A DNA stretch of 64,000 nt from a virus. Taxonomy: Duplodnaviria > Caudoviricetes. Below the pieces are notes generated by a model. It did no database searches. It was not told the DNA's origin and saw only the letters and a list, made by a program, of their open reading frames with translations. The DNA lies in IMG/VR virus record IMGVR_UViG_3300011444_000011, positions 30,424 to 94,423 of that record; one strand, given 5' to 3'. Below are positions 7,860 through 52,705 of the stretch, piece after piece (the stretch's first letter is position 1; every line of letters starts with the position of its first letter). A program made the translations under genes and the position numbers.

Positions 7860-8439
7860 TTTCTTTGCCGCGTACAGAAAGTACCTTGATGATCCGGCCG
7901 TAAAGGCCACCCACGCGAGGATGTTCAAAATCTTCGACGATCACTTCGTATGCGGGTCGATGAACCGCGTCGTGGACCTGGGCTGCGGTACGTGCGAGTT
8001 CGCGCGTTACATGGATGAACAAGAGTGGATGAACAGCTACCACGGCTTTGATTTGGATATCAGCCGTGCTGATGTTGACAACATCGACAATGTCAGCATT
8101 ACCTTGAAGGAAGCTGATTTCACGACCGGCGATGTGATCGAGCCGCACGATATGTTCGTGAGCCTCTTCGCGTCCGAGATCATCCTACCGTGGGATGAAC
8201 ACGAGAAGTTGTACGACAAGTGGTTTGAGAAGGGCGCGTCGATTGGATTGGTGGCCGGCTTCCACTATCTGCATTGCCCGCACTTCCCGCAGGTTACTGA
8301 GAAAACTGGCTACACCGTCTACCAGACGACGCCCAGTTCTCCAATGCGCAGCGAACTACGGATGTGCCAGCAGGTGCCGCCGGGAATGTTCGTTGACCCG
8401 TTCGTTGAGGTCTGGAGAGTGATATGGCCGAGCAAATGA
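7843..8439 (+). CDS. class I SAM-dependent methyltransferase
   Basis: VVDLGCGT motif I, YHGFDLD motif II. Confidence 0.8.
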   Translation: MQYQPDFFAAYRKYLDDPAVKATHARMFKIFDDHFVCGSMNRVVDLGCGTCEFARYMDEQEWMNSYHGFDLDISRADVDNIDNVSITLKEADFTTGDVIEPHDMFVSLFASEIILPWDEHEKLYDKWFEKGASIGLVAGFHYLHCPHFPQVTEKTGYTVYQTTPSSPMRSELRMCQQVPPGMFVDPFVEVWRVIWPSK

Positions 8440-8885
8440 AACGACGCGGTTTCTTGGGCATGTTGGCGTCTTTGATACCAGTATCAAAGGTGCTTCTGAC
8501 CATTCCGAAACCCAAACCGAAAGGCCCGAGTCCCGACTTGTCGGGTGCCGCAGCCTGCCGCCGGACAGTGGCTGATCCGGTCGAGTTAGTTCACATTCCG
8601 GTGTCAGAGATCGACTTCCACGCCCATGACTCTTTCGTCCGGCATCCGGTTATGGAACACGTTCACCGACTGGCGGTGGATATGGAAGAACGCGGCATGT
8701 GTATGCCGATTTACGTCAGGAAGATGGCATCCGGCAAGTACGGAGTCATCAACGGAACGCACCGTGCGTGGGCTGCCCGTAGCTTAAAGTGGCCGACGGT
8801 TTTGGCCTACGTCACGCACACGACGGACGCGGAAGCACTGGCCCTATTTATTAACCTCAACTCACAACGGAGCGTGAAATGTTGA
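8436..8885 (+). CDS. ParB/Srx N-terminal-domain protein with twin-arginine-like leader
   Basis: MKRRGFLGMLASL leader; IPVSEID..LAVDMEERGMCMPIYV..YGVINGTHRAWAARSL. Confidence 0.8.
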   Translation: MKRRGFLGMLASLIPVSKVLLTIPKPKPKGPSPDLSGAAACRRTVADPVELVHIPVSEIDFHAHDSFVRHPVMEHVHRLAVDMEERGMCMPIYVRKMASGKYGVINGTHRAWAARSLKWPTVLAYVTHTTDAEALALFINLNSQRSVKC

Positions 8886-8987
8886 TGGCAGTAATCTCCC
8901 TGGGGACCGCGGGGATTGCTTTGCTTATTTTGGCAATTGTTACTTTGTTATTCCTAATTTGCGTTTGTCACGTTCAGGGAGTCCAAG

Positions 8988-9203
8988 ATGCGGAACGAGG
9001 ATATTCAGACAACTACCTCATCGACGACTTCACCCACGACGAGTTCGGAGATCAGTGAAGAACAGAGGCAAGATCAAATCTACCAGCTAGGCAACGTGAT
9101 GAACTTGAGCTTCTACGCAGTGAACCGGCTCAAACAACTCTCGCCTGATGCCCTGGCCGAACTCGTCTACGTCTTCAATATCAAACCACCCACCGGAGTC
9201 TAA
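8988..9203 (+). CDS. hypothetical protein
   Basis: GGGAG SD. Confidence 0.55.
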   Translation: MRNEDIQTTTSSTTSPTTSSEISEEQRQDQIYQLGNVMNLSFYAVNRLKQLSPDALAELVYVFNIKPPTGV

Positions 9204-9204
9204 C

Positions 9205-9381
9205 ATGCTGAAGGCTTTCAATTCGTTTCAACTCGTAACCGCTTTTGCCCTTGCTCCGTTCGGGATTCAGTGGCTCTCGAACGCGACGTTCAGCGGCGCG
9301 CCGGCCGCGTTCTGGGTTGGCATCGTTGCCTACGTCGTCAGCTTCATCGCCATGTGCGTTGCCGTCCACGACTCGGTATGA
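9205..9381 (+). CDS. small two-TM membrane protein
   Basis: two hydrophobic helices. Confidence 0.6.
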   Translation: MLKAFNSFQLVTAFALAPFGIQWLSNATFSGAPAAFWVGIVAYVVSFIAMCVAVHDSV

Positions 9382-9695
9382 TAACCCAGTTCCTGACGTT
9401 CCTGGGCCTCGTTGGAGTTCTTATTGTGGTAGTTCGTGTCATCCAAAGGGAACGCATGACTTACAACCGATGCGTCAACTGCCGGGGCATATACGACGGC
9501 GACCATTGCCCGTGTCTCGACCACAAGACGCTGACGCCGCAGATGATAGCGGAGCGTCTAGGTCGGGTGCTAGGTGACGCCTTGTCGCAAGGCATTGAGA
9601 TTCGGGTTCCTGCGGAAGCACTGCATGATTTGACTGATCCCGATTTGGTGTGGAGAATCACAAAGGGTATCCACTCCGTCAGGATGCGTCAGTAG
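9378..9695 (+). CDS. membrane protein with CxxC..CxC
   Basis: TM helix then CVNC..CPC; ATGA coupling. Confidence 0.6.
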   Translation: MITQFLTFLGLVGVLIVVVRVIQRERMTYNRCVNCRGIYDGDHCPCLDHKTLTPQMIAERLGRVLGDALSQGIEIRVPAEALHDLTDPDLVWRITKGIHSVRMRQ

Positions 9696-9740
9696 CGTTT
9701 ACTGTCCCGCAATTGCCTAGCCTTTGCGTGGACTTATGGA

Positions 9741-9846
9741 AGCTCTGTGCCTGAGCATGGCCAAAGGGTGATGGTAACAAGAGCGGGAAGGTGGACGTTA
9801 CCAGTCCTAGTCCTACCGCCCGCAGGTTCGAATCCTGTCAGAGATT
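9741..9846 (+). ncRNA. tRNA-like element (Tyr-like D arm) with aberrant, enlarged anticodon region
   Basis: acceptor AGCTCTG/CAGAGAT (6 of 7 pairs), D arm CCTGAGCATGGCCAAAGGG, T arm GCAGG-TTCGAAT-CCTGT; no CCA. Confidence 0.55.
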
Positions 9847-9859
9847 TCGAAGCGTGAAC

Positions 9860-9961
9860 GTGGTTCGATTCCACAAAAGCCCTGTGTTGTCGCGGGTAAT
9901 CGAAAGCCGCAGCGTGTATCGGCGAGGGTATCGTCCGAGGCTAGGTGGCCATCACAGGGTT
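9860..9961 (+). ncRNA. structured intergenic element: isolated T-arm plus multibranch hairpin
   Basis: GTGG-TTCGATT-CCAC at 9860-9874; GCCCTGTG/CACAGGGT closing stem with two internal helices. Confidence 0.35.
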
Positions 9962-9993
9962 CTTTGATATTAACATCAACTCACGGAGATAGC

Positions 9994-10284
9994 ATGAACA
10001 TCAACGAAACGAAACTCCAAAGAACTGTCAGAGGGATCGCCGGTGAAGTTCTCGCCGAACGCCAGTATCAGGAAGACAAGTGGGGCGACAAGTTTGACAA
10101 GAAGAACACGCCCAACGACTGGGTGTGCTACATCGCCAAGTACCTTGGCCAAGCAGTCACGTTGCCGTGGGACGCCGCGACATTCCGCAAGATGCTCGTC
10201 AAGACAGCAGCGTTGTGTTTCGCTGCAATTCAATGGTGTGACAAGACGAAAGGGAAGATGCCGAAACGGCATTACGACAAATGA
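9994..10284 (+). CDS. all-alpha NTP pyrophosphatase (MazG-like) family protein
   Basis: EVLAERQYQEDKWG..DWVCYI..LVKTAALCFAAI pattern. Confidence 0.55.
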   Translation: MNINETKLQRTVRGIAGEVLAERQYQEDKWGDKFDKKNTPNDWVCYIAKYLGQAVTLPWDAATFRKMLVKTAALCFAAIQWCDKTKGKMPKRHYDK

Positions 10285-10676
10285 TATCCAAAATCAGTCG
10301 CCGCGGAATTTTGAGCTTACTGCCAGCATTCCTGCTTCCGGCATCCTGGCTCCCGAAGAAACCCGAACTCGTCCTGGTCAAGAAGGTTCACGGTGACGGC
10401 GTCAAGCGATGGAAGCACCATCCGTGCCCGAAAACGTGGTGGGATGCCTTCACCTTCATCCATCATCACGACGGACAGATCAAGGTAGGTTTCGACGGTG
10501 TCTCCGGCATGGAGCTAATCGTCATCAACATCGGTGAGTACGTTTGCTCATACCAGCATCCGTGCAACGTCATCGAGCCGAAGCTCGACGCAACCGCTTA
10601 TTACAACGAATTCGTCGTTCCATGTGCCATCGCCCTGTGGCGAATCATTTACCAGAAGGAAGGCAACAATGCCTAA
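10281..10676 (+). CDS. twin-arginine-like leader plus coat-protein-like fragment
   Basis: ISRRGILSLLPAFLL leader; YYNEFVVPCAIALWR resembles coat LVDEYLRPAAIAMAR. Confidence 0.65.
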   Translation: MISKISRRGILSLLPAFLLPASWLPKKPELVLVKKVHGDGVKRWKHHPCPKTWWDAFTFIHHHDGQIKVGFDGVSGMELIVINIGEYVCSYQHPCNVIEPKLDATAYYNEFVVPCAIALWRIIYQKEGNNA

Positions 10677-10929
10677 AGCCACACGTCAAGAAGTGTATGC
10701 TGCACTTGATACTGAACGTCTTTATCAGGATCAGCTTCCGGCGACCAGAAGCGACGGTGCGCCGCGAACCGTCGCTGACTACATCACGATGCTCTCGCAC
10801 TATCAAGCCGAGGCTATCAGGGCGTGGACGACGAATCCGGGCGATGCCGAGGCTCTCGAAGTGATTCGCAAAATCGGTGGCATCGCGGTTCACTGTATGG
10901 AAGATCACGGAGCACCACCACGACGATGA
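10669..10929 (+). CDS. MazG-like family protein, paralog of 9994-10284
   Basis: EVYAALDTERLYQD..DYITML..IRKIGGIAVHCME. Confidence 0.55.
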   Translation: MPKATRQEVYAALDTERLYQDQLPATRSDGAPRTVADYITMLSHYQAEAIRAWTTNPGDAEALEVIRKIGGIAVHCMEDHGAPPRR

Positions 10930-11111
10930 TCCAGCTACGCTGGACCGACGAAGACGTTTGGAAGGATGCTCACTGGCTACGTTCGATTGAACAGGGCGAA
11001 GAGGAATGGCGGCAAACCTGTGCCCGCTATCGCCCTGGCAATCGACCGCCTGGCGTCGAATTCCGTGTTCGACCATACTTCACAATGGATGCTCAAGTGA
11101 GGATTGCATGA
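10926..11111 (+). CDS. hypothetical protein
   Basis: ATGA coupling. Confidence 0.5.
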   Translation: MIQLRWTDEDVWKDAHWLRSIEQGEEEWRQTCARYRPGNRPPGVEFRVRPYFTMDAQVRIA

Positions 11112-11251
11112 GACGACCTGACAACGTAGTCTGGAGTTGGCCCTGGCAGTGTTTCTGCATTGGATTCAGTGTCCAGGGCTACTGGTTCCAAGCGAAGTGC
11201 GTGACACTTTGTTTGGGGATTCTGACGTTACGCTGGCACGATAGGTAAAGC

Positions 11252-11719
11252 ATGAATCTGCCAAACAAGAAGAACCGTGACCGCATCCGGCAAATGGCTA
11301 TCGGAGAAGCAACGGAGGCGCAAATCGCAGCCGAAAGGGTAAAGCGGGACAAGGAAGCGAAAGAACTTGAGGAAATGCAGGCGAGGGCGAAGGCACGCTA
11401 TCTGCGGCTCGTGCAGAAGATTCCTGATGTGGTGATTAAGGCAATCGCGGACGGCAAGGTCGAAGTTGATATTATCGTCCCCGAAAACCCGCCAAATTAC
11501 ACGACCGAAGCGACAGCCGAAGATTGTGAAGTCGCACGGCTGGTCATGGAGTTCTTCGCCAATGAGAAAGACTACCGATTCCAATTCAAGCAAGTCCCGG
11601 CCGACTACAACACTTCCAGAGAGACAGCCGACGGCGGTTGCACCGACACAGAGCGGGTCCACAGGATGCTCCCCGGAATCATCATCGGTTGGTATAATAT
11701 CGCTGATCCGGCAGCGTAA
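11252..11719 (+). CDS. hypothetical protein
   Basis: 155-aa ORF with N-terminal coiled coil. Confidence 0.65.
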   Translation: MNLPNKKNRDRIRQMAIGEATEAQIAAERVKRDKEAKELEEMQARAKARYLRLVQKIPDVVIKAIADGKVEVDIIVPENPPNYTTEATAEDCEVARLVMEFFANEKDYRFQFKQVPADYNTSRETADGGCTDTERVHRMLPGIIIGWYNIADPAA

Positions 11720-11842
11720 TGCCTATCGGCTGGTCAAACGTGATCTTAATATCAATGCGGGGTTGATCGGACAGAATGGCCCGGTTCGGGCATCGGCGAT
11801 CGACGACGTTGAAACCCTTTTGCAGATACTGGAGTCCAGATA

Positions 11843-13759
11843 ATGGGATGCGATTATTGCAACAACACCGGAACAGTGATCCCGTTCGTCGGCGAAGCTC
11901 ACCCGTGCCCACGATGTACGGTTGTCATCAAGTCACCGCCGTTGAACGACCAGCCGAACTTCCAGGCCACGTTGAACGTGAAGTTCGGGCAGGTCTACGA
12001 TGATGCGGCCCACAAGATGGTGCCCGCTTCGACGGCAATCACCGCTGGCGAAGGCATCAAGCGGTTCATGGTGCTGAACAGCATCCTGTATTCCGGCATC
12101 AAACAGACGGTCATCGAGAAGCTGGCCCACCGGCCTATCGAACAGCAGTGGGTTCGCTTCCAGAGCTACTGCCGTTCGGTGCTCCGCGTCGAGATGCCTG
12201 ACGACTACATCAACAAGCCGGATGATGTGCAAGATTTGTTGAAGGCCCGCGTCACGGTTACTTTCGACCCGAGTGTCAAGGTGACTTTCGACCCCGAAGC
12301 CTTGAACGTCCCAGTCTTCCACAAGGATGATCCGCGACTTGCTGAACTGCTGAAGCCGATCGGCGAAAGAGGACGCTTCGAGATCAGCGAGGGGTCGATT
12401 ATCGGCGGTGGCGTCTATATCGCCAATCACGGATTGCCGCCGGGGAAGCTCGTCGCCGTGACGCCGATGCGGAATCCTCTCTTCCAGCATCAACAAGCTG
12501 CTGTCGATGAAATGATGGATCGCTACGATCGGGACGTTGCCCGCATTGATACCAGTCGCACCTACGCTGATACTGGTATCATTCCGGCCCGGTGGGCACA
12601 AGAGAGCGAAGACATACTTCAGGAAAACATGATCGCCGGCTGGCTCGTCAAGCAGCAAGGCAAGGAATGGCCAGAGTGTATGCAGATGCCCGACGGAAGG
12701 GTATTTCAGCGGGGAAAGGGGAAGTCGGAGTACAAGTATCAAGGTCAGCCGCTAACGGTTGCCGACTGCGATATGCTCCGCACGGCCATCGAAGTGATGA
12801 ACAAGGCTGACTGTGACGTGAACTATGAATCGACGCTCGACCCGTCGGAACTCTGGTTCATGGTCTTCCCGCATCTGCCCGGCCCCGCCAGCAGAACGGA
12901 GATCAAGGTTCTCAAGTGCGTGCGTGACGCCCGCGAGAAAAGCTACATCAGCGAAGGCGCGGCATACGATATTGCCAAGCTGCCGTTGATGCACCAAGAA
13001 GCCGCACTACGGCTTGTGGTTCCGGGCATCCAGACGTTTGTGAAGTACACCTGCGAACCGCAGAAAGATATTGCATTCGAGTTGTCGCTGCCACTTGGAG
13101 CGACGGTAATGTGGGAGCACAAGCCCGGCCACAAGTACAAGGTGCTCTGTGAAGTCAAGGATGCAATCGACAAGCGGCTTATAAGCCCCGTTGTAGCAGT
13201 ACGGATCGCCCGTCAGGTCTTCCGTAAGCAGAGGCAAATGCTGACGACGGCATTGGCCGAAGCCGACGGAATGTTGATGGGAACGGGTGCAACGAAGATG
13301 GGTAAGAGCTTGAAGATGGCTGTTGCCAGAGGCAAGCGAAATATGCCGACGATCGAGGACATCCTAAGCCTGATGTCTCTTGCCCAGCAGCGTATCAGCA
13401 CTGATATTCAAATCAAAGATGGTCAGGAAGAAGACCGTCACAAGGTTTGGTTACTGCTCCGGGAAATGCGTGTCAAGCTGCAACGTGTCAATGTGCAGAT
13501 GATGGGTGCGGTGCATCAAAGCGACCGGGTTCCGGCGATGCACAACCCCTCTGAATCGGTACTGAACCAGGAAGTGGTTCAGGGCTTCAACGATGCGTTG
13601 GCATACATGAACGAGAAACGGCCAACCGAGAAGCCGGCATCCGAGTTCATGGCGGGTTACATCCCGGCGTTGAAGCGTATCAACGATGGGCGTCCGCACC
13701 CTGAACATTTTAAGAAACAGGTCGAAGCTGACCCCGATCCCGGAGCCGACTCATGGTGA
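11843..13759 (+). CDS. large mosaic protein: Zn-finger, coat-protein-like, ParB-helical-like and P-loop-like fragments
   Basis: 638 aa; CDYC..CPRC; IIPARWAQESEDILQENMIAGWLV; two IS..A..IA....Q..L repeats; GATKMGKS. Confidence 0.75.
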   Translation: MGCDYCNNTGTVIPFVGEAHPCPRCTVVIKSPPLNDQPNFQATLNVKFGQVYDDAAHKMVPASTAITAGEGIKRFMVLNSILYSGIKQTVIEKLAHRPIEQQWVRFQSYCRSVLRVEMPDDYINKPDDVQDLLKARVTVTFDPSVKVTFDPEALNVPVFHKDDPRLAELLKPIGERGRFEISEGSIIGGGVYIANHGLPPGKLVAVTPMRNPLFQHQQAAVDEMMDRYDRDVARIDTSRTYADTGIIPARWAQESEDILQENMIAGWLVKQQGKEWPECMQMPDGRVFQRGKGKSEYKYQGQPLTVADCDMLRTAIEVMNKADCDVNYESTLDPSELWFMVFPHLPGPASRTEIKVLKCVRDAREKSYISEGAAYDIAKLPLMHQEAALRLVVPGIQTFVKYTCEPQKDIAFELSLPLGATVMWEHKPGHKYKVLCEVKDAIDKRLISPVVAVRIARQVFRKQRQMLTTALAEADGMLMGTGATKMGKSLKMAVARGKRNMPTIEDILSLMSLAQQRISTDIQIKDGQEEDRHKVWLLLREMRVKLQRVNVQMMGAVHQSDRVPAMHNPSESVLNQEVVQGFNDALAYMNEKRPTEKPASEFMAGYIPALKRINDGRPHPEHFKKQVEADPDPGADSW

Positions 13760-14082
13760 AAATCGACGGATACCCTCGGCCGAGTAACAACTACGAGGCC
13801 ATGAAGTTCCTGTTCGCGCATAAGGTGACTTTGGAAACAGGCCGTTGTGAGGCCGGTTTCCTGCATCTTATCATTCACTGTGGCGAAATGTTTGTTGATA
13901 CTAAAATCAGTGACGAAGACCGGACGATCGGGGAACTGTTCGACGCTTTCCTGTGTCCGGCCGCTTGTGCTCTGTACAAGTCCATCTACGAACTGTGCCC
14001 GCACGGTTCAGACCCCAAAGCATGTGAGGATTGCCGTGGAGTATCTGGTACAACTGAAGGGCGGTCAGAGAATCCGGGGTGA
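13753..14082 (+). CDS. hypothetical protein with C-terminal CxH..CxxC
   Basis: GGAG SD; CPHG..CEDC. Confidence 0.55.
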   Translation: MVKIDGYPRPSNNYEAMKFLFAHKVTLETGRCEAGFLHLIIHCGEMFVDTKISDEDRTIGELFDAFLCPAACALYKSIYELCPHGSDPKACEDCRGVSGTTEGRSENPG

Positions 14083-14232
14083 GATCATCGAGGTCCACCT
14101 TGATATCGGTGTCGAAAAGGTCAAGATTAAGGGCGAGCATATCAACATGATGTTCCGCCCCGATCTCGGCTGGTGCGATTTGACCTGCGGGTTCGTGCTT
14201 GGCATCATTGCCCACGCATTCGTGAGGTATCT

Positions 14233-14520
14233 ATGCGGCTGAAAATCTTCTTGCAGAAGATCGCACGCTGCAAGACCTGGCGCATGCAATGTGATGGCAC
14301 AATCAGAAACCGGGAATGCCAGTGCCCGGTCGAATATGTCGCGGGCGTCGATGCTGGCCAGAAGTTTGAGGATTTGTGCGTGCTCGTGGATCAACATAGG
14401 CTACCGCCTACCGTTGCTGTCATCCGTGCCGCCGACCATAAGCCCATCAGCGTCGATCACAGCTATCACAATCTGATTGAGTTACGGCGACTCTTGGGAA
14501 AGGCATGTGGTTTGCTATGA
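14233..14520 (+). CDS. hypothetical protein, paralog family A
   Basis: CP(V/I/L)E..(A/C)AD..NL..LR..L motif shared with 14517 and 20259. Confidence 0.65.
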   Translation: MRLKIFLQKIARCKTWRMQCDGTIRNRECQCPVEYVAGVDAGQKFEDLCVLVDQHRLPPTVAVIRAADHKPISVDHSYHNLIELRRLLGKACGLL

Positions 14521-14819
14521 GACTCCGAGAATTTCTGGCGAAGATGGGTGAACACAAGTGGATGCTCGTGGACTCATTTGGTGCCAAGCTGCGGACGAAG
14601 GGTGCAATGTGCTGCCCGATTGAGGCCGTAATCGGGTTGCCCTCTGGCTGCCCGAATTGCGTGTTGAAGGAAGCCGGCGTGCGGATGAAGATTCCGTACA
14701 TCGAGGCTCTGGTTCAATGTGCCGATATGCGTATCATCGGCTGTCAGTATCACGATTACTTCAATTTGCTGGCTTTGAGGCGACAGCTTCTAATAGCCGC
14801 TGGACTGGGCGATATATGA
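14517..14819 (+). CDS. hypothetical protein, paralog family A
   Basis: HKW..CPIEA..IPYIEALVQCAD..NLLALRRQLL. Confidence 0.65.
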   Translation: MRLREFLAKMGEHKWMLVDSFGAKLRTKGAMCCPIEAVIGLPSGCPNCVLKEAGVRMKIPYIEALVQCADMRIIGCQYHDYFNLLALRRQLLIAAGLGDI

Positions 14820-14853
14820 AATGGCTCGTGGTAATTTTTATTACGGTGTTGCT

Positions 14854-15246
14854 ATGATTTACGAACAGATCGTAGCCGACACGATGGACAAATCGCTGCT
14901 GTGGCGACAGTGCGAACTCAATGACCGATGGCTTGGGTCGCACCGCTTCTACAAGGTTGTCGTCCGAGAACACTTCTTCTCGGTAACGCTGCATGTCGTA
15001 ACGCGGAACAACCTCTGTTTTGATGTCAATATCAAACGACGGACGTGGATGAAGTTCTTCGACCGTGTCTGGACGCAAGGCCATCTGGACGAATACTCCG
15101 TCTTACAGGAAATGACCAACTATGCTGACTCCAAGCCCGCAGTGCATGACCTGGAGACATACGCCCGCCGCGCTGCACAGGCGGCGACTATTCCGGGATC
15201 AGAAGAATCAGGCACTCGCTGTCCTGATAGTGCTGTGCGACCATGA
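14854..15246 (+). CDS. hypothetical protein
   Basis: ORF in array. Confidence 0.55.
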   Translation: MIYEQIVADTMDKSLLWRQCELNDRWLGSHRFYKVVVREHFFSVTLHVVTRNNLCFDVNIKRRTWMKFFDRVWTQGHLDEYSVLQEMTNYADSKPAVHDLETYARRAAQAATIPGSEESGTRCPDSAVRP

Positions 15247-15697
15247 GGTTAGCCACAATCGAAGCTGCATCTACTGTGGCCTCGACGAAACAACGTACTG
15301 GCGGCTGCACAGGATGACGGTCGCCGGTCTTTACACGACCGAGAGAATGGTAACGGAGCTACTCCATGCGTGCCCATCAGCGTTACGGACATTGGAAGCG
15401 GGCATCCGTGCAGGCACGCTACTACCTAAAACGGAACAAGTACGCGGATCAAAGCAAGATCGTGACCGTCTACAATCGTTTCGGGCAAGAGCAGGGTGTC
15501 CGAGTTAAGGGCCGGCACGGCTGGCCCGTCGGTGATTTGATTTCTTCCTATCGACCGTAAAGGTGCAATATGTGGATTTACCGTTGGCTGGAGCACAGTG
15601 ACAAATCTTTGATCGAGAAAGTCGCTGGAGCGATGTACGCCTTTTTCTTCCTTGTGATCCTGGGTTTCCTGTTGTTCATGCTCCTGATGGTGCTGCT

Positions 15698-16072
15698 GTG
15701 ATAGTTCACAAGAATTGCCGAATCGCTTTCGGCTGCACACGGATTGTGATACTGGTATCAAAATGGGCAATCAAGATACCGTCGTTCTACTCCTGGCGGC
15801 TGTTCTTGCTGGGCTTGCTGGCCAACATGCAAGAGGCACAGTTCAGCAAGACGGGCTGGCCGGAGCTATGCCCAGTAAGTTGGTCGCTTTGGGGCGGCTG
15901 GCTCGTAATTATGAAACGGGCTGAAGTGCTATCCGAAACAGATTTCTGGATACACAAACTTCGACTCAAAATGATGGTCAATCAACCCGATTACGTTGTG
16001 CCTTGCGAAATGAAGCACGACAGTTTCGGCATCCTAGACGGCAAGTTTGTTGTCGTCGATTACGGGAATTGA
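15698..16072 (+). CDS. small protein-kinase-like fold protein
   Basis: GCTRIV..WAIKIP..N..EA..LCPV..VIMKRA..EMKHDSFG..VVVDYG. Confidence 0.6.
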   Translation: MIVHKNCRIAFGCTRIVILVSKWAIKIPSFYSWRLFLLGLLANMQEAQFSKTGWPELCPVSWSLWGGWLVIMKRAEVLSETDFWIHKLRLKMMVNQPDYVVPCEMKHDSFGILDGKFVVVDYGN

Positions 16073-16073
16073 T

Positions 16074-16367
16074 ATGAAACACGATCGAGCTATGATTCCG
16101 GCATCTAACGACAAGCTGCGAGAGTTCGCGGATATCGCCGAATTAGTGGCCCATGAACAGGCGTCCCACGACCAGAGCCCTTGCCCATCAATGAACGACA
16201 TGGTCAGGGATGCCTGGAATTCGTTGACCGAGAAACGGCAGATTGTCATACTCGTCGCCTTGCAGCGGATCGCCCTTGACGATTGCATCAAGTACGGAGC
16301 ATTGTTACGGGAAGCTGCAACCGTGATTACTGTTGGTCAAGTCCTAGAAGAATTGGCACGAAGATGA
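16074..16367 (+). CDS. hypothetical protein
   Basis: coupled ORF. Confidence 0.55.
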   Translation: MKHDRAMIPASNDKLREFADIAELVAHEQASHDQSPCPSMNDMVRDAWNSLTEKRQIVILVALQRIALDDCIKYGALLREAATVITVGQVLEELARR

Positions 16368-16651
16368 ACAGGATCACAAGAAGCGAGACTCCGTTGAGTT
16401 TCCTCGATCTGGCCAACGTCGATGAAATCCGTGCGATCATCCAGCCGGGCCTCTCGCGGGAACGGGCTTGCAGGACTATGGCCCTGGCTTGATTGAGTGG
16501 CTTGGCTACGGAGACGTGCAGAAACAGATCGACGAGGCTTGGATGCAGTTGTCGACGGAACGACAACACGAGATTCTGCTTGGTTGGCGGAATACCGTAA
16601 ATCAGCGAGTCGAGAGTTTTGATACTGCAATCAGAAAAATCGAGGACGGCC

Positions 16652-17284
16652 ATGAGAATAATCAGCGGGTTCCATGATTATTACGATCCACTTTGCAAGC
16701 ACGACGCTGACCGAGAGACGCTGTACATACGGAAAACCGAAGAGGCAGCACCGATCGAGTTTCCCCGCGTCTGGCTTGACAATACGTGCAGAATCCGACT
16801 GCTATGCTTCGCCGGGAAACTGATACCGCATGTCGAAATCAACATCATGCACCGCGGCGAGTGGAAGACAAAGGTGTGCTGGCAGCGGGCGAAAGCCAAG
16901 GATCATGTCGAAGAGTTCACGACGAAGGCCAATTTCAGGATGCTGAAACGCCGTGCCTACGGTATCTTGCGTGACCTGGATCGGTTCTTCGACTGGAAGC
17001 CAGAGAACGTCTACCCCAATACACCGATCTGGTTCGCAACCAGCGAGGCCACTACGACCGACGGATACCGGACATGGAAGAAGCGGACGTTACTGAATCC
17101 GCGGGTTATGGACGTGTATCCGGGGTTTGTGAAAATCCTGCCACCGGCACAGGCGTATCAGGAACTGGTGATGTGGCATGGAAGAATGGCGCGGCCCGAA
17201 CCTAACGTCCCGGAAATGAGCGACGCGGATAAGATCGCTGGCCACGGCTTCGATAAGTTCTCATTCAGAAAGCCTAAGCAATGA
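16652..17284 (+). CDS. phage hypothetical protein
   Basis: GAGG SD; MRIISGFHDYYD..AYQEL..DKIAGHGFDKFSFRK. Confidence 0.7.
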   Translation: MRIISGFHDYYDPLCKHDADRETLYIRKTEEAAPIEFPRVWLDNTCRIRLLCFAGKLIPHVEINIMHRGEWKTKVCWQRAKAKDHVEEFTTKANFRMLKRRAYGILRDLDRFFDWKPENVYPNTPIWFATSEATTTDGYRTWKKRTLLNPRVMDVYPGFVKILPPAQAYQELVMWHGRMARPEPNVPEMSDADKIAGHGFDKFSFRKPKQ

Positions 17285-17508
17285 ACAACCCGTTAGATAT
17301 TGATATACGCCGGGCCGTCTGTAACAGCCCGCACTGCTCTTACCCGCACGCCCAGAGACTCACGCAGTTGATGCTTGCCGAAGAACGACTGGCACGCCTG
17401 GAAGCGGGTGGCGTTAATAACTGGGAGTGGTATCACGAATCCCTGCATCCGACGGATAAGCCATCACTGGATGATTTTGAGGAGGCGCTGAATAATGTCC
17501 AACCCTGA
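17281..17508 (+). CDS. hypothetical protein
   Basis: LARLEAGGVNNWEWY; ATGA coupling. Confidence 0.6.
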   Translation: MNNPLDIDIRRAVCNSPHCSYPHAQRLTQLMLAEERLARLEAGGVNNWEWYHESLHPTDKPSLDDFEEALNNVQP

Positions 17509-17740
17509 AGCTGACAAGCGCGAGGTCTTCATCATCTGCGTCAATGACGCCATTCGGCAAGAGGCGTTTGAGAACATCGACGTGGCGATTGAGTTCGTCA
17601 TCAAGACCGTGCTTCCTAAGCTGGAAGACAACCTGCGGTCACGGACGACTCGCAAATTCACTTCCATCGGCACACGTCTCGATCCGTTCTGGTCAAATGA
17701 TATGTGCAGTGTTCGCATCAGAACCCTGGTACTGCAATGA
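17495..17740 (+). CDS. hypothetical protein
   Basis: GGAGG SD upstream. Confidence 0.55.
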   Translation: MSNPEADKREVFIICVNDAIRQEAFENIDVAIEFVIKTVLPKLEDNLRSRTTRKFTSIGTRLDPFWSNDMCSVRIRTLVLQ

Positions 17741-17840
17741 CACTCCTGAAACGCTTGATATTGAATATCAATGATCGCTGGTGGGTTCGGGTCTGCCAGT
17801 GGCACTACTCCAAGTTACCCGGTTCAGATAGGGCGTGGTG

Positions 17841-18140
17841 ATGGAAAGACTCATTGAAATCGTGATCGAAGACACAATCGCCGGCAGGCTTCGCTGGGAA
17901 TGCGGCGGTCACAGCGATACGTGGTCGGCCAGAGCTTCGACGTATACACTGTCCCAAGTAACCAAAGGTATCTGGAACTGGTACTTCGTCATGTACACGA
18001 ACTCCGGTGTCAGTCGCCTTAAAATCAGGCCGTGGCAGTGGAGAAAAATCCAAGCCGCCCTACCGCCCAAACTTCTGACACCGGAACAAGCAGCGGCGGC
18101 TATTGGATTCAATGACGCAGAGGTCGGATTGCATGAGTAG
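17841..18140 (+). CDS. hypothetical protein
   Basis: ORF ending just before tRNA-like element. Confidence 0.55.
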   Translation: MERLIEIVIEDTIAGRLRWECGGHSDTWSARASTYTLSQVTKGIWNWYFVMYTNSGVSRLKIRPWQWRKIQAALPPKLLTPEQAAAAIGFNDAEVGLHE

Positions 18141-18143
18141 CAC

Positions 18144-18272
18144 GGAAGTCATGGTGGAAATACTGGGCCGCAAGCCCTGTCGGTAGACACGCAGCCCTCT
18201 AACTCGCGGGCCGTTAGAAGGCTGTACCCTGTTGCAATGCGGGGTGTACGGGTTCGAGTCCCGTTGACTTCC
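18144..18272 (+). ncRNA. class II (Leu-like) tRNA-like RNA with D-loop hairpin insertion and 16-nt anticodon-loop insertion
   Basis: GGAAGTCA/TGACTTCC acceptor; TGGTGGAA..GGTAGACACG; CAGCC/GGCTG anticodon stem; 7-bp variable arm; ACGGG-TTCGAGT-CCCGT T arm. Confidence 0.75.
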
Positions 18273-18286
18273 TTTGAAAGACTAAA

Positions 18287-18583
18287 ATGAGCAATAATCT
18301 ACGGTTGATGTGCAACCCGCCGGATGTTGACGGATCGCGGTTGGCGAGTCTCTGTGTTCAAGAACTCCGTGTTCTTTTAGACTTGAGAGTGAAGGCGTAC
18401 CACCAGCATCTTGACGAGTATCGGAACGACAGTTGCGCGGAGAACAACTTCACTTTCATCAAACAAATCGTCGAGGTTTTGAACGCCATGCAGAATACTG
18501 ACACAGTCATGCGTGATGGCAGTATCAAACCCGGATGCAAGCTCACCCTTTTCCAGCCGCCTTATTACAAGGATAACCGATGA
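18287..18583 (+). CDS. hypothetical protein
   Basis: ORF in array. Confidence 0.6.
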   Translation: MSNNLRLMCNPPDVDGSRLASLCVQELRVLLDLRVKAYHQHLDEYRNDSCAENNFTFIKQIVEVLNAMQNTDTVMRDGSIKPGCKLTLFQPPYYKDNR

Positions 18584-18984
18584 GAGTGACCAAAGAGAAG
18601 ATCGCCTTGATGTGGGTATTCAAGGCCGCGACCGACCTGTACATGGAAGCCGTGTGCAGGTCGTCTGATGCCAGAATCAACCTGCTCCGGTTGCGGGACA
18701 CGACATCCGAGGTAGCGGTGAAAGCAATCGGGCGGTATCAGGAAGCGGAGCACCAGTTCAAACTGCCGGAAAAGCGGTACACCGCCGCTCGGAAGAAGGT
18801 ACAACGTGCGTTCCGGCCCGGCGTCTATCATCCATTTGGTGAGACGTGGTGTCTCGTCGTCAACCCGAACTTCGCCTCAATCAACCCTATCACAACTGTC
18901 GAGACGGGCGTTCTCGACAAACTCGTCAAGAAGCAGGAACCTTGGGATGCCTTGAGCCGTATGGCCGGAACTCCAATCGTTTGA
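18580..18984 (+). CDS. hypothetical protein
   Basis: ATGA coupling. Confidence 0.6.
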   Translation: MRVTKEKIALMWVFKAATDLYMEAVCRSSDARINLLRLRDTTSEVAVKAIGRYQEAEHQFKLPEKRYTAARKKVQRAFRPGVYHPFGETWCLVVNPNFASINPITTVETGVLDKLVKKQEPWDALSRMAGTPIV

Positions 18985-18999
18985 TATGAGGAATAGATC

Positions 19000-19284
19000 A
19001 TGGTAACACTGGAAGATATCGTCAGACGGCGAAAAGCCATTGCCCAGATGCACAAAGACGATCAGGCTCTAAGTCTGGTCGAGCTTTACCGTACCGTGCT
19101 ACTCCAGATTAGCCAGAGCGGCGAAGACCCTAAGAGTCTAGCGGCGGTGGCCCTGGGTGAGAGGACGACGCTTGAGCATACTAAGAGCGCAATCCAGTCG
19201 CTGGTAGCAGGAATGGCAAGTGGAACGATCAGCTTCGGCGAGGCTGTCGAGATACTCAAGGCTCTAATGCAGGAGTTACCATGA
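19000..19284 (+). CDS. hypothetical protein, tandem paralog of 19281-19490
   Basis: LVELYRTVLLQISQSGEDPKSLAAVALG vs LLEFYEAVLTEISDGTPDAKNLASAALG. Confidence 0.65.
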   Translation: MVTLEDIVRRRKAIAQMHKDDQALSLVELYRTVLLQISQSGEDPKSLAAVALGERTTLEHTKSAIQSLVAGMASGTISFGEAVEILKALMQELP

Positions 19285-19490
19285 CGCCAGACAGAGTAGC
19301 TGCCAGACGTAACGTAATCTATGCTCCGCATGGCGGCGTCGATGAACAGAAGCAGCAGTTGCTTGAGTTTTACGAGGCCGTGCTGACCGAAATCTCTGAT
19401 GGTACGCCCGATGCCAAGAATCTGGCATCCGCGGCGTTGGGCAAGTTACCAAAGTGGACCGTTTCTGATACTGGTATCAAACCATGCTAG
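19281..19490 (+). CDS. hypothetical protein, tandem paralog of 19000-19284
   Basis: shared motif as for 19000-19284; AGGAG SD. Confidence 0.65.
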   Translation: MTPDRVAARRNVIYAPHGGVDEQKQQLLEFYEAVLTEISDGTPDAKNLASAALGKLPKWTVSDTGIKPC

Positions 19491-19741
19491 TTCAATGCGA
19501 TGGGCACGCGGTCGGTCGCTGCCTTGAGAAGATAATTGCGGATAAGGATACTCTGCAAGCCATTCACGGCTGGGAGAAGATGGACAAGATCATCAAGAAG
19601 GCCCAGCGGATGCTGGACTTAGTGACTGACCATAAGCTGAAACGCTTCAATCTCCAGCACAGCATGGTACTGCTTGACACTGACGACTTTCATTTCCTCA
19701 AGACCCACGAGCCCAGCGATGGACCAATCACAAGAGTCTGA
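19484..19741 (+). CDS. hypothetical protein
   Basis: overlapping ORF in array. Confidence 0.55.
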   Translation: MLVQCDGHAVGRCLEKIIADKDTLQAIHGWEKMDKIIKKAQRMLDLVTDHKLKRFNLQHSMVLLDTDDFHFLKTHEPSDGPITRV

Positions 19742-20180
19742 ACCCGAATTCGTCATCGAACACTACACCGAACGGGACATGATCCAATCGCTGCTCACGT
19801 CACGAGTCGAGTATTTTGAGCGATGTCGGCGTGAGCCAAGACTGTCAGAGCTAAAAGCTCTCGACCCGTTGACCTGCACCGGGCAACAGGTCATGGATAT
19901 CAGTGATCCCAATGCCAAGTGGGACAACTGCTACAGTTGCGATTTGTGTGGCAACGACGTTCTCGAAGTTGTCCACTTCAGTCAGGTCCAGTACAACAGG
20001 ACAATGGAGATTTGCCGGGGTTGTTTGGAAATCGCGTTTAACTTACTGGAAATACGACCATTGGAGATTAAGTCGTGCCCAAAGCAAGCAGATTCGACGG
20101 GATTGATACTCAGACTCTCAAAGAGTCTGAAACGGTTCTTCGCGGGGAACTGGCTACGGCGGTTAGTGAAATGCGAGTAG
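19719..20180 (+). CDS. Zn-finger-containing hypothetical protein
   Basis: CDLCG..ICRGC. Confidence 0.55.
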   Translation: MDQSQESEPEFVIEHYTERDMIQSLLTSRVEYFERCRREPRLSELKALDPLTCTGQQVMDISDPNAKWDNCYSCDLCGNDVLEVVHFSQVQYNRTMEICRGCLEIAFNLLEIRPLEIKSCPKQADSTGLILRLSKSLKRFFAGNWLRRLVKCE

Positions 20181-20258
20181 CTACGAGTCGGTTAGCACAA
20201 GCCCGCGTTGCGTTACAAGAACTGACGGCCGAAATCAGGAGCAGACATGAAAAGGCGA

Positions 20259-20585
20259 ATGAAGCGAGGGTTGTCAGAACTGTTGCACCGGCTGCGGCGA
20301 ACAACGAGACGGCACAAGTGGACGCTGCTGCCGATGTTGGACAAGCCGGGATCGGGGCTCCCCAAGCTATACAGCCTACGGGATGATTGGGGACGGTGCC
20401 CGCTGGAAGCGACGACACCGCCGCGAGAAAAGTCATTTAGAGGATTGAGTCAGAGAGCCTTGTTCCTGGGTATCCCTTACGTCGAGGCCATCGTTGACGC
20501 AGCGGACGGCCGTTTCAGAAGCAAAGAGCATGATGTTACCAATTTACGGGCGTTGCGCGATGCAATGCTGGCTGCCATCGGTTAA
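20259..20585 (+). CDS. hypothetical protein, paralog family A
   Basis: HKW..CPLEA..IPYVEAIVDAAD..NLRALRDAML. Confidence 0.65.
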   Translation: MKRGLSELLHRLRRTTRRHKWTLLPMLDKPGSGLPKLYSLRDDWGRCPLEATTPPREKSFRGLSQRALFLGIPYVEAIVDAADGRFRSKEHDVTNLRALRDAMLAAIG

Positions 20586-20620
20586 TGCGGTATCGGTTAA
20601 TGCGGTATCGGTTAATGCGG
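20577..20620. repeat. 15-bp tandem repeat x3 (ATCGGTTAATGCGGT)
   Basis: read directly; first copy contains the TAA stop of the upstream gene. Confidence 0.9.
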
Positions 20621-20916
20621 GCTTGGTTGATACCAGTATCAATGATAAGGTCTGGCAACGGATGATTAGCGCCAAGCACAAATGGACGGTGTCTCATGTG
20701 CTCGTGGTGGCCAGATCAGTGAATCTGGAATCCGAGCATCCAGTTGGTGTCCCTGAATTGATCGCTGTAGCCAAACAGGTAATGGAAAGGTATCATAATG
20801 AGAGACCCCAATGAGCTACCGTCGGTTGCTGAACTCATAGCCTTCGGCCTCTTAGGGCTGGCGTGCATAGTCTTGTTCATCATGCTCACAAAGGCCATCA
20901 TCGAAAGGGCAGGATT

Positions 20917-21195
20917 ATGAAAATCTCACCATCTGATATCCGCACCAGAGATCATTTCTGGGATACGTTCGATAAGAACGAGATCGAATGCGCGGCCCGC
21001 AACATCGTCATCGCTTCCCAGAAGAAGGGTGATTGGTTCGATTTCACGGAAGATGATATTAACATCGGACCTTGGGGCAACTTCTTCGTGGTCAACGGGT
21101 ACTTGTCGCGAGTAGGCAAGACGAAATATCGCGTGCTCCCCGAGTTCGTGATGAAACTAAGCAAATATCTAAAGAAGGGAGTCATCAGTGTCTAA
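20917..21195 (+). CDS. hypothetical protein (possible winged helix)
   Basis: AGGA SD; NGYLSRVGKTKYRV. Confidence 0.6.
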   Translation: MKISPSDIRTRDHFWDTFDKNEIECAARNIVIASQKKGDWFDFTEDDINIGPWGNFFVVNGYLSRVGKTKYRVLPEFVMKLSKYLKKGVISV

Positions 21196-21919
21196 TACGA
21201 TTTGGCACGGCGATTGCGTCAAGTTTGTTCATCAGTTGAGGCCGGTCAAGTGCATCATCGCTGATCCGCCGGACAATCTCGATTTGGGGTATGACGGCTT
21301 TACAGACTTCAACCCCGATTACTACGGGTGGCTTGGTTCCCTGATCCGGGCATCCGTCGAGCGGTGCGACCATTTCTGGTTGAGCTATTATCACGCTCAC
21401 GACCTCGCAATATCGAGCATTGTCTACGATGTTGTACGCCGGAAGGGACTGGACTGGCACAAGTACCTTTGGCGGTTCACGTTCGGCCAGCATAAGGAAA
21501 CTGATTGTGGGAGCGGTTACAGAACAATCCTCAGATTATCGCAGCCTTCGCAGCCGCTTAATACATCAGCGGTTCGGGTGCCCAGCCTGCGACAGACGTT
21601 ATACAACGACCCACGAGCTAATCCGGCAGGAAGGGTTCCAGACGATGTCTGGGAGTTCCCGCGTGTTACCGGCAACAGCCATGAACGAAGAGCATGGCAT
21701 CCGACGCAGCATCCCGTAGCCGTGTACTCCCGGATACTGCGGCTGTCAACGGCACCGGGCGATAAGGTGGTGGACCTGTTCGCGGGCACGGGCACACTTT
21801 TCAGAGCGAACCACTCATACAAGCTCTCGGAACGACGGGAATGCTCGGCAGTTGATATCAGTATCAAATACTGCCAGGAGATCGCTAAGGAACATCAACT
21901 GGAGATCAAGACCATTTGA
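21188..21919 (+). CDS. N4/N6 DNA methyltransferase (beta-type), DPPD variant
   Basis: IWHGDC, IIADPPDN, DDVWEFP, HPTQHP, VVDLFAGTGT. Confidence 0.88.
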   Translation: MSNTIWHGDCVKFVHQLRPVKCIIADPPDNLDLGYDGFTDFNPDYYGWLGSLIRASVERCDHFWLSYYHAHDLAISSIVYDVVRRKGLDWHKYLWRFTFGQHKETDCGSGYRTILRLSQPSQPLNTSAVRVPSLRQTLYNDPRANPAGRVPDDVWEFPRVTGNSHERRAWHPTQHPVAVYSRILRLSTAPGDKVVDLFAGTGTLFRANHSYKLSERRECSAVDISIKYCQEIAKEHQLEIKTI

Positions 21920-22350
21920 AAGGGTCACATGAACGATATCGAAACGGAAGCCGGAACGGAGCAACCCAAGCTACCGAAGATGAACAGCATTTCCAGTGGC
22001 GACGGGATTACCTGCTGTACGAAGTCGGCATCGTGGTGCATGAGAAGAAGACCGGCAAAGAAGTCGGAAGGGTCGAGCACCGGGAAGGCAAGTATGAAGT
22101 CTCTGGCGACCTCAGCCGGTACGTCCCGCAGTATGCCATCAACATGCTTCGTGATTACGGTCTGATTGTGCATCGGGAATCGCTGTATCAGTTCGTCGGG
22201 CTGTTCCAGCGTTTCGAGAATTCAAATTGCACGGTCATTGATATCAGGAAGACCGACAATTCGTCTTATACCATCAGGTTTCACGGCTACGCCGAGTTCA
22301 TCAAGAAGAACCCGGAATTCAAAGATTCAGTTACGAGAGTGAGAGAATAA
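21916..22350 (+). CDS. hypothetical protein
   Basis: coupled ORF. Confidence 0.55.
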   Translation: MKGSHERYRNGSRNGATQATEDEQHFQWRRDYLLYEVGIVVHEKKTGKEVGRVEHREGKYEVSGDLSRYVPQYAINMLRDYGLIVHRESLYQFVGLFQRFENSNCTVIDIRKTDNSSYTIRFHGYAEFIKKNPEFKDSVTRVRE

Positions 22351-22859
22351 TGGAAGCAATAGGACGACGTGATTTCTTCAAGATGAGTGCTTGCGCCGGA
22401 GCGATCCTAATACCGGGCCTACATCTGTTGGCAGCCGAGCACCACATTCCCTACCAACTGGGAGTGTGGAATAAGGAAGAGTGTATCCGGGTTCCGGTTC
22501 GTGCTCTTGCCAATGATTGGGGACACGTTGTTGCCCTCGCTGATATTGCCATCAGAGACGCCAAGACGTGGGTAGGGGCGTGCCTGCTTCGGAACGACGA
22601 TTCGATTCTCGCAGCAGCACCGTTCAGCAGCACGGTTGCCGTCATAAATGGCGACACCATCAAACTGTCCTACGCGATCAACTGGCCAGAATGTGCTGAC
22701 AGGCGGGAATGGAACAGGATTGTAGGTGGTCTGTCCAAGTCCCGCCGGTTGCAACGAGGATTCGAGCCATCAGTTGTCAGCGGCACCGGCCCTCACCTGG
22801 AGCTTTCAGACTACGACAACATGGCTTTGAGGGCACCCAGATTACCTACACGGCAATAG
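22350..22859 (+). CDS. twin-arginine-like leader plus tail-protein-like domain
   Basis: IGRRDFFKMSACAGA leader; FSSTVAVINGDTIKLSY vs FATTVAVINGDSVKVTY in 52157-52705. Confidence 0.7.
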   Translation: MEAIGRRDFFKMSACAGAILIPGLHLLAAEHHIPYQLGVWNKEECIRVPVRALANDWGHVVALADIAIRDAKTWVGACLLRNDDSILAAAPFSSTVAVINGDTIKLSYAINWPECADRREWNRIVGGLSKSRRLQRGFEPSVVSGTGPHLELSDYDNMALRAPRLPTRQ

Positions 22860-22900
22860 TGGTCTACCTACACTAAAGATGCGCTTGACCACCCCAAACA

Positions 22901-22957
22901 GCGCTTAGGTCCGAATAGCGATTAGGTCCGAATAGCGCTTAGGTCCGAATAGCGCTT
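22901..22957. repeat. 17-bp tandem repeat x3.3 (GCGCTTAGGTCCGAATA)
   Basis: read directly; one mismatch in copy 2. Confidence 0.9.
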
Positions 22958-22967
22958 GGCAAGTTTC

Positions 22968-24051: not shown

Positions 24052-24129
24052 TGGCAATTCCGAAATTTCTTGCCAGTTTCGGCACGCCGTTCGCTCTTTA
24101 CTCGTTTCGGAATTGTTCTCAATTCGGCC

Positions 24130-24157
24130 TTGACTTGCCGGAACCGTGAGATACAAT
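24130..24157 (+). promoter_or_regulatory. sigma70-type promoter upstream of ParB-like gene
   Basis: TTGACT-16 bp-TACAAT. Confidence 0.65.
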
Positions 24158-52156: not shown

Positions 52157-52705
52157 ATGAAGATTTTCAGAAAAGTCGGAGAATGGTTCGCCAATTTCCT
52201 CGCCAAGCGTGGCATTTGTGCCAGCCCGTTCTTGCTGAAAGGCAAGTGGGTCATGGAAGTCATGCGTGCCGGCGTGGTCATTGCAACAATGGCGTTCCCG
52301 AACGGCATCACGGATGTGGGCTTGAACCACATCCTTGAAACCGAGTTCCACAGTGGAACCCCGGTCACGACTTGGTACATCGGTATCGTTGACAACGCCA
52401 GCTTCTCGGCGTTCGCCAACGGTGACACGATGGCCAGCCATGCCGGCTGGATCGAGAGCACCGCTTATTCGGAATCTGTGCGGCAGACGTGGGGTGCTGG
52501 TACGGCCTCGGCCCGATCCATCACCAATGCGTCGGCTGCGACGTTCAGTATCAACGGGTCGGCAACGCTGAAAGGCATTTTCGTCACGTCGAACAGCACG
52601 AAGTCCGGTACGACCGGAACGCTGTGGAGCACCGCCGCCTTCGCTACGACGGTTGCGGTCATCAACGGTGACTCGGTGAAAGTCACTTACACCGTCTCTG
52701 GATGA
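52157..52705 (+). CDS. tail/baseplate-associated protein
   Basis: after TMP; NGITDVGLNHIL, WYIGI, VAVINGDSVKVTY. Confidence 0.65.
   Translation: MKIFRKVGEWFANFLAKRGICASPFLLKGKWVMEVMRAGVVIATMAFPNGITDVGLNHILETEFHSGTPVTTWYIGIVDNASFSAFANGDTMASHAGWIESTAYSESVRQTWGAGTASARSITNASAATFSINGSATLKGIFVTSNSTKSGTTGTLWSTAAFATTVAVINGDSVKVTYTVSG

Follow-up and report, generated by a model that had tools for sequence, protein, structure and literature searches.

A tailed phage (Duplodnaviria; Caudoviricetes) known from the IMG/VR record IMGVR_UViG_3300011444_000011 carries, among its early genes, three small genes whose products, P0001, P0002 and P0003, each open with a short leader resembling the twin-arginine translocation (Tat) signals of bacteria. 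The stretch analyzed here, termed the window, comprises 64,000 nucleotides, namely bases 30424-94423 of the 94,423-bp record; the completeness of the record is estimated at 97%, and its source sample is a freshwater sediment metagenome. Positions are those of the window unless another contig is named, and the features are collected in Table 1. An initial annotation of this DNA had proposed three leader-bearing open reading frames (ORFs), and all three lie where it placed them, on the + strand. The start of P0001 is either 8424, behind a GGAGAG ribosome-binding site, or 8436, where ATGA overlaps the stop codon of the preceding gene; P0002 likewise starts in an ATGA overlap and P0003 in a TAATG overlap. 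Every leader gene is thus translationally coupled to the gene upstream of it, and in light of these couplings and the ribosome-binding site the leader falls inside the translated gene in all three instances.

Table 1. Position, strand and character of the leader-bearing genes, their parts and other genes discussed in the text
Feature	Extent in protein	Position in window	Strand	Description
P0001	153 aa	8424..8885	+	twin-arginine leader, Lys/Pro linker and lone ParB N-domain
P0001 leader	residues 5-22	8436-8489	+	KRRGFLG...SLIPVS
P0001 ParB N-domain	residues 54-149	8583-8870	+	alignment with Noc/Spo0J
Membrane-protein ORF cluster		8879-9058, 9148-9381, ~9378-9695	+	small, strongly hydrophobic; between P0001 and P0002
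P0002	131 aa	10281..10676	+	twin-arginine leader and ~105-aa mature domain
P0002 leader	residues 1-25	10281-10355	+	SRRGILS...
Early protein	638 aa	11843-13759	+	two matches to the coat N-terminus (~100 residues)
144-aa gene	144 aa	21916..22350	+	TAATG-coupled to P0003
P0003	169 aa	22350..22859	+	Tat-like leader, beta-sandwich and ~50-aa helical tail
P0003 leader	residues 1-29	22350-22436	+	GRRDFFK followed by 18 uncharged residues; canonical-looking
P0003 beta-sandwich	residues ~35-111		+	residues 51-111 (22500-22682) homologous to the C-terminal half of P0005
Large terminase		35455-37122		GpA type
Coat protein		41876-43249		P22 type (PF11651)
Tape measure protein	1463 aa	47763-52154		
P0005, tail-module protein		52157..52705	+	directly after the tape measure gene; phrog_8123
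P0005 region in common with P0003	residues 106-181	52472-52699	+	

Twin-arginine-type leaders and their conservation

A six-frame scan of the complete 94,423-bp genome looked for an RR-x-hydrophobic motif close to a start codon and followed by a hydrophobic, uncharged stretch. P0001, P0002 and P0003 proved to have the only clean N-terminal leaders of this kind genome-wide, the remaining matches to the strict motif having charged or polar "h-regions" (the hydrophobic segment behind the motif) or lying in shadow frames. In a set of 11 leaders drawn from the three proteins and their homologues, the arginine pair stands at positions 3-7 in every one, and 9-10 of the 11 fit the pattern polar-RR-x-hydrophobic-hydrophobic. 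The h-regions are uncharged over 12-23 residues and rich in Gly, Ala, Ser and Pro, with a best 19-residue hydropathy of 0.72-1.81 that falls below the classical threshold of 1.6 in 10 of the 11; two of the small membrane proteins from the P0001-P0002 interval reach 3.13 and 2.47 by the same measure. Judged by these values the h-regions of the leaders are too weakly hydrophobic to be membrane anchors. In most members the net charge is higher ahead of the h-region than behind it, which predicts an orientation with the N-terminus inside and the C-terminus outside. In the AlphaFold2 model of P0003 residues 1-30 are disordered and are followed by a confidently modeled domain, and Tat-signal clusters are among the language-model neighbors of P0002 and P0003 (scores 0.79-0.83), which we treat as leads only.

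Every homologue that we recovered has the leader. In the P0003 family the N-terminal RRxF is present in 5 of 5 full-length relatives even though their overall identity is just 25-40%. The nearest relatives of P0001 are two adjacent, overlapping proteins of the same minimal ParB architecture, hereafter ParB minis, in a contig of a related phage (L003:12758-13201 and 13128-13556), and their similarity to P0001 begins right at the leader. These tandem ParB N-domain minis (L003:12758-13556) overlap by 74 bases and each have an RR...SLIP leader of their own, only the second having been annotated by gene callers. Another related phage codes for an intact homologue of P0002 (L015:1042-1437; 46% identity, E 2e-40) that also opens with an RR leader, while in a third phage the homologue is broken by frameshifts with the RR leader still discernible. 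In this last case, a 94-kb relative (L006:6118-6606 and L010:15850-16340), the RR leader, the middle and the C-terminal part of the homologue are spread over three frames, and contigs from two samples show exactly the same split; the gene is either decayed or dependent on frameshifting for its expression. No further close relatives of the three proteins were found in IMG/VR with peptide patterns made for the three proteins and two sub-alignments, profile searches of genome contigs and metagenome contigs yielded no further relatives, and a word-indexed protein search with P0001 and P0003 returned only the query itself.

A leader of the form RR-x(5-10)-[ST]LIP is common to the ParB minis and the P0002 family. 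It occurs 5 times at an N-terminus in 342,000 six-frame residues, where shuffled sequences lead one to expect 0.6 instances and give at most 3. The leader of the P0003 family is of a different type, RR-[DE]-F-F, which is more canonical than the RR...SLIP type. Hence, of the view taken in the initial annotation that one common leader serves as a modular tag, the reuse on unrelated cargo stands, but the single leader does not extend to the P0003 family. The leaders are a genuine, conserved feature and have been put to use on unrelated cargo.

Cargo domains behind the leaders

P0003 had been linked to the tail-module protein P0005 of the same phage through a matching segment, and this match is real at the level of the families and stronger than had been noted. 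BLASTP pairs the two proteins with an E-value of 5e-7 over 54 residues, and their Smith-Waterman score of 74 compares with 28.4 +/- 4.4 for shuffled sequences, none of 2000 shuffles reaching it. A profile-profile comparison of the two families (hhalign) gives a probability of 94.8% and an E-value of 5e-8 over 60 columns, in which residues 51-111 of P0003 correspond to residues 106-181 of P0005, and three further members of the P0003 family match the same region of P0005 independently. The family of P0005 is large and well conserved (1838 matches, most above 55% identity); for P0003, phmmer run exhaustively against 1.84 billion representatives found only six relatives. As only the C-terminal half of P0005 aligns, we regard P0003 as carrying a homologous domain and not as a member of phrog_8123, and a PHROG scan of P0003 likewise gave no match. 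P0003 differs from P0005 in being without the N-terminal half, in its added leader and helical C-terminal extension and in its location in the early region.

AlphaFold models of the two proteins, with a model confidence (pLDDT) of 73 for P0003 and 80 for P0005, returned the same solved phage tail chains in an exhaustive structural search. These comprise the fibre-tail adaptor GP4 (8jou_a; Z 9.3 with P0005 and 4.1 with P0003), the phi812 baseplate (9euf_b), the Sf14 neck (9c39_K), the HFTV1 tail (9h4p_BD), the KP1 baseplate (9f4a_AY) and the Bxb1 tail tip (9d93_Ra). Taken alone the structural Z scores of P0003 are weak (<=5.7), and therefore the argument for its fold rests on the common list of chains together with the profile match; Foldseek searches of P0003 against PDB and BFVD produced weak rows only, with E-values of at least 2e-3. 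The phage's own P0005 ranks just 16th of 110 family matches to P0003. We accordingly discarded a recent intragenomic copying of the tail gene as the origin of P0003 and view the latter as an old paralogue of the tail family.

The lone ParB N-domain that had been recognized in P0001 was likewise recovered with a formal profile, PF02195 scoring 33.4 bits over residues 73-141 against a gathering cut-off of 26.3, and ParB-like families of PHROG match at E-values down to 3e-14. The domain aligns with the N-terminal CTPase domain of Noc and Spo0J (Table 1). Its box II reads G-T-H-R in place of GERR, and its box III reads N-S-Q-R, the glutamate of the full motif ENLQR being lost. As the protein stops at residue 153, four residues past box III, it is without the helix-turn-helix (HTH) domain. 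The ParB partition protein model TIGR00180 scores it at 30 bits against a cut-off of 58.45. Based on the missing HTH domain, the altered GERR and ENLQR motifs and this sub-threshold score, we rejected P0001 as a full ParB/CTPase clamp. The genome codes for two other ParB proteins recognizable at the level of Pfam ParB_N, and a fourth ParB gene is seen at the level of PHROG. P0001 is distant from all of these, at best 34% identical over 61 residues, and closer to the leader-bearing minis than to the full-length ParBs of the phage. The initial annotation had taken each cargo for a fragment of a core phage protein; the ParB and tail-like domains belong instead to old, diverged families and were not cut from the core genes of this phage itself.

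The mature domain of P0002 (~105 residues) matches no known family, and two cysteines in it are invariant in the intact homologue. A segment of P0002 had been read as a match to the phage's coat protein, and this similarity, examined between residues 105-122 of P0002 and coat residues 111-128, is due to chance. BLASTP does not report the claimed pair (best E 17), and the Smith-Waterman score of 39 compares with 28.3 +/- 4.1 for shuffles, 45 of 2000 of which reach it, for what is a single pair selected from the whole proteome. A profile of P0002 and its intact homologue attains an hhalign probability of 0.4% with the coat protein, and the segment is unconserved in that homologue (L015:1042-1437). 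A separate observation concerns the 638-aa early protein, for which BLASTP gives two matches to the N-terminal part (~100 residues) of the coat protein, one at E 2e-4 (13 of 26 residues identical, coat residues 20-45) and one at E 0.002 (coat residues 6-99); its homologues in relatives have a precomputed match to PF26675/DUF8224. Judged by these alignments it is a more credible case of a piece of coat in an early gene than P0002.

Genomic setting of the leader genes

The genome has a P22-type coat protein, a GpA-type large terminase and a long tape measure protein, and its early region is a long series of small genes on the + strand. There is no integrase among the phage genes scanned, and no GenBank phage proved similar at the level of DNA; neither blastn with the terminase-portal region nor tblastn with P0003 brought up a relative among GenBank phages. 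The phage is probably a lytic siphovirus-type phage. The genes for P0001, P0002 and P0003 lie 20-40 kb away from the virion module, amid early genes, a setting that suggests early or middle accessory genes. P0001 and P0002 belong to an early cluster holding several small membrane-protein genes. One membrane ORF between them (8879-9695) has a CxxC...CxC cluster behind its transmembrane (TM) segment, and the two leader genes and the three hydrophobic ORFs of this interval together make up an early "envelope" cluster. A PADLOC scan of the phage gave zero matches, and the matches of P0001-P0003 in PHROG and PADLOC are confined to ParB families.

P0003 is the final gene of a long early operon, where it follows a DNA methyltransferase gene and the 144-aa gene. 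The latter also stands directly upstream of the P0003-family gene in the related phages L015 (44% identity) and L006 (29%), and is not conserved in that place in L003 or L017. Downstream of P0003 there is a 1.3-kb non-coding stretch and then a gene for a 425-aa ParB-like protein. The order methyltransferase, 144-aa gene, P0003, gap and ParB-like gene is seen again in two related phages, and P0003-family genes keep a fixed position across three syntenic phages. The idea that the 144-aa protein might be carried along with P0003 as a Tat hitch-hiker received a complex prediction score of 0.02 when it was paired with the mature domain of P0003.

In the non-coding stretch (22860-24145) a 17-bp unit is repeated ~3 times at 22901-22957; public contigs vary within the stretch by insertions or deletions of 17 and 22 bases, and in L006 and L015 the P0003-family gene is likewise followed by a gap of about this length. 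Two short contigs from a sediment metatranscriptome run match 21648-22138, over the methyltransferase and 144-aa genes, with at least 99% identity. As RNA libraries may include DNA, they hint no more than weakly at expression of the operon in the environment. No contig over P0003 was found among the public runs compared with 21188-23300, a result that is not informative on the expression of P0003.

Proposed envelope targeting and its possible role

We propose that P0001, P0002 and P0003 are accessory proteins directed to the envelope by a conserved export leader of the twin-arginine type, a proposal that we hold at about even confidence. Of its parts, it is probable that the leaders function in export, while the specific use of Tat is a matter on which we see the balance as roughly level. 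The cargo would be made early and fold in the cytoplasm, the host Tat translocase would read the twin-arginine leader of each protein, and the folded cargo, whether the minimal ParB/Srx-fold N-domain, the two-cysteine domain or the tail-like beta-sandwich, would be moved to the periplasmic side, there to be released or held by an uncleaved leader. The choice of Tat instead of Sec would be explained by the quick folding of virion-type and nucleotide-binding domains in the cytoplasm. Both the dependence on Tat and the outward topology of the cargo are predictions drawn from the leaders' sequences. The leaders resemble bacterial Tat signals such as those of TorA, SufI and the Rieske-type anchors in the polar-RR-x-hydrophobic-hydrophobic pattern, the short and weak h-region and the folded domain behind it, and also in that they often have basic residues behind the h-region. 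They differ in belonging to early proteins of a phage with virion-type or ParB-type cargo, in missing the cut-offs of hidden Markov models (HMMs) and in their often unclear cleavage sites.

Several observations weigh against this proposal. No leader reaches the cut-off of a curated Tat HMM: P0003 falls just short with TIGR01409 (15.3 bits against 16.7), P0008, another protein of the leader set, scores 11.9 bits with PF10518 against a cut-off of 22.7, and P0001, P0002 and the other leaders have no match at all to a TAT_signal HMM. For this reason we term the leaders Tat-type by motif and conservation and do not count them as verified Tat members. Canonical AxA cleavage sites are clear in some members only, so that some leaders may persist as outward tethers in the manner of Rieske proteins. 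The topology is ambiguous for P0001 and one L003 mini (L003:13128-13556), in which the positive charge behind the h-region equals or exceeds that ahead of it. The phage codes for neither tatA nor tatC. The leader-protein families are very rare, amounting to 7 clusters among the 1.84 billion representatives, and the P0002 homologue appears to be dispensable in the related phage in which it is frameshifted. P0001-P0003 also match no known exclusion or defence family in PHROG or PADLOC, libraries that hold few such proteins.

The missed HMM thresholds and the want of a clear AxA site in several members would also be in keeping with leaders that were ordinary Sec signal peptides or uncleaved signal anchors with an incidental arginine pair, in which case the proteins would still be envelope-targeted, though not via Tat; the 20-residue stretch of P0001, with the highest hydropathy of the set (1.81), could moreover span a membrane. 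Against this, the arginine pair is found in 11 of 11 leaders and is followed in nearly all by F or L at +2 despite low identity, and the h-regions, rich in Gly, Ala, Ser and Pro, fall far below the phage's own TM segments in hydrophobicity. Basic residues behind the h-region are furthermore a typical means of avoiding Sec. We consider a Sec-type signal or signal anchor unlikely, though it is the likeliest of the alternatives.

The ambiguous charges raise another alternative that concerns the ParB minis only, namely that the leader is a reverse anchor with its N-terminus outside, so that the ParB N-domain would be held at the membrane on its cytoplasmic side. The charge behind the h-region is +4 in P0001 and +3 in L003:13128-13556, against +3 and +2 ahead of it. 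Such a protein could tether phage DNA coated by ParB, in line with the further full-length ParB-type genes of the genome and by analogy to p16.7 of phi29, a membrane tether of phage DNA, or its target could be DNA that is entering at the site of injection. A precedent for the latter is SNIPE, a membrane-bound host defence nuclease that works at the site where the tape measure carries DNA through the inner membrane, and some homologues of which localize through mimicry of phage proteins (PMC13190303). SNIPE differs in that it defends the host and has a genuine TM helix and a GIY-YIG nuclease that faces the cytoplasm, and it is not homologous to P0001-P0003. The third mini (L003:12758-13201), however, has a charge of 0 behind its h-region, which at 13 residues and a hydropathy of 0.75 is too short and polar to serve as a stable anchor, and the same type of leader occurs on the unrelated P0002 family. 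The domain itself is without an HTH and has lost the glutamate of box III, and we hold a reverse anchor to be distinctly improbable.

The initial annotation had put forward two roles for exported or tethered mimics of phage proteins: titration or relocalization of immune sensors such as CapRel and Avs, or exclusion of superinfecting relatives. CapRel and Avs act in the cytoplasm, and sensors of their type would need cytoplasmic cargo, which makes the former topologically unlikely given that the cargo is predicted to lie outside. Homology to a virion protein is genuine for one cargo, and a membrane tether could in principle sequester a sensor; yet the supposed coat mimic is not real, no special closeness links the tail-like domain to the phage's own tail protein, and we know of no sensor that reads ParB N-domains or the phrog_8123 tail family. 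An immune decoy is thus very improbable. Equally improbable is a coincidental likeness to export signals in soluble cytoplasmic proteins or virion components, given that the leader is kept across all homologues and between unrelated cargo families, is enriched over shuffles, and belongs to genes of the early region, well away from the virion module.

Between the two roles, exclusion of superinfecting relatives appears to us to fit better than a decoy. The likeliest job of the envelope-targeted proteins would be interference at the level of the envelope with incoming phages, that is superinfection exclusion, or interference with the phage's own receptor or injection site. P0003 would serve as a look-alike of a component of the tail tip, namely of the tail protein whose gene adjoins that of the tape measure. 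An exclusion role is nevertheless one that we advance tentatively, as on the whole doubtful. Known phage exclusion proteins, such as Llp of T5, Cor, Ltp of TP-J34, gp15 of HK97, Imm and Sp of T4 and Lom of lambda, are small, are expressed outside the virion module and reach the envelope by way of an N-terminal signal or anchor; there they target the receptor or the DNA entry mediated by the tape measure. They use Sec signals, lipoprotein signals or TM helices, unlike the Tat-type leaders described here, and to our knowledge none of them is a paralogue of a tail protein. P0001-P0003 would be envelope-targeted phage accessory proteins of a known kind, in which the unusual cargo and the Tat-type leader are what is new.

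The cargo of Tat is usually seen as consisting of cofactor-containing bacterial enzymes. Phage-encoded Tat substrates made of virion-type domains are not described in the literature that we searched, and the nearest published case found is WceF of Pantoea stewartii, in which a Tat signal precedes a phage tailspike fold (PMC7949094). WceF resembles P0003 in having a phage-tail-type domain as Tat cargo (PMC7949094), but it is a bacterial 736-aa beta-helix enzyme that modifies glycans and is encoded in an exopolysaccharide locus, without sequence relation to the 169-aa phage-encoded beta-sandwich protein. For P0001, there are parallels in ParB folds at work away from partitioning. The CdiA toxin domain ToxB is, like P0001, without an HTH domain (bioRxiv 10.64898/2026.05.05.722872), and a secreted lipoprotein of Pseudomonas with a ParB-like nuclease domain has been reported (PMC5082522), which combines a ParB fold without an HTH with a location outside the cytoplasm. 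P0001 differs from both in being a minimal phage domain of 100 residues with GxHR for GERR and no glutamate in box III.

In its most far-reaching form, the proposal would see in these genes one case of an undescribed phage strategy, in which a portable twin-arginine leader exports virion-derived and DNA-handling domains in folded form to the envelope of the infected cell, the tail look-alike engaging the tape measure, tail tip or receptor of relatives that arrive later and the ParB mini acting on entering DNA, so that superinfection is blocked at injection; this we offer as a speculation with little chance of holding in full. The present analysis removes the capsid-fragment lead and leaves the immune decoy at odds with the predicted topology. 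If the leaders work, the three families would constitute a small, testable set of proteins that the phage puts into the host envelope early in infection, with a bearing both on how competitors may be excluded at DNA entry and on the choice of an export route for folded proteins.

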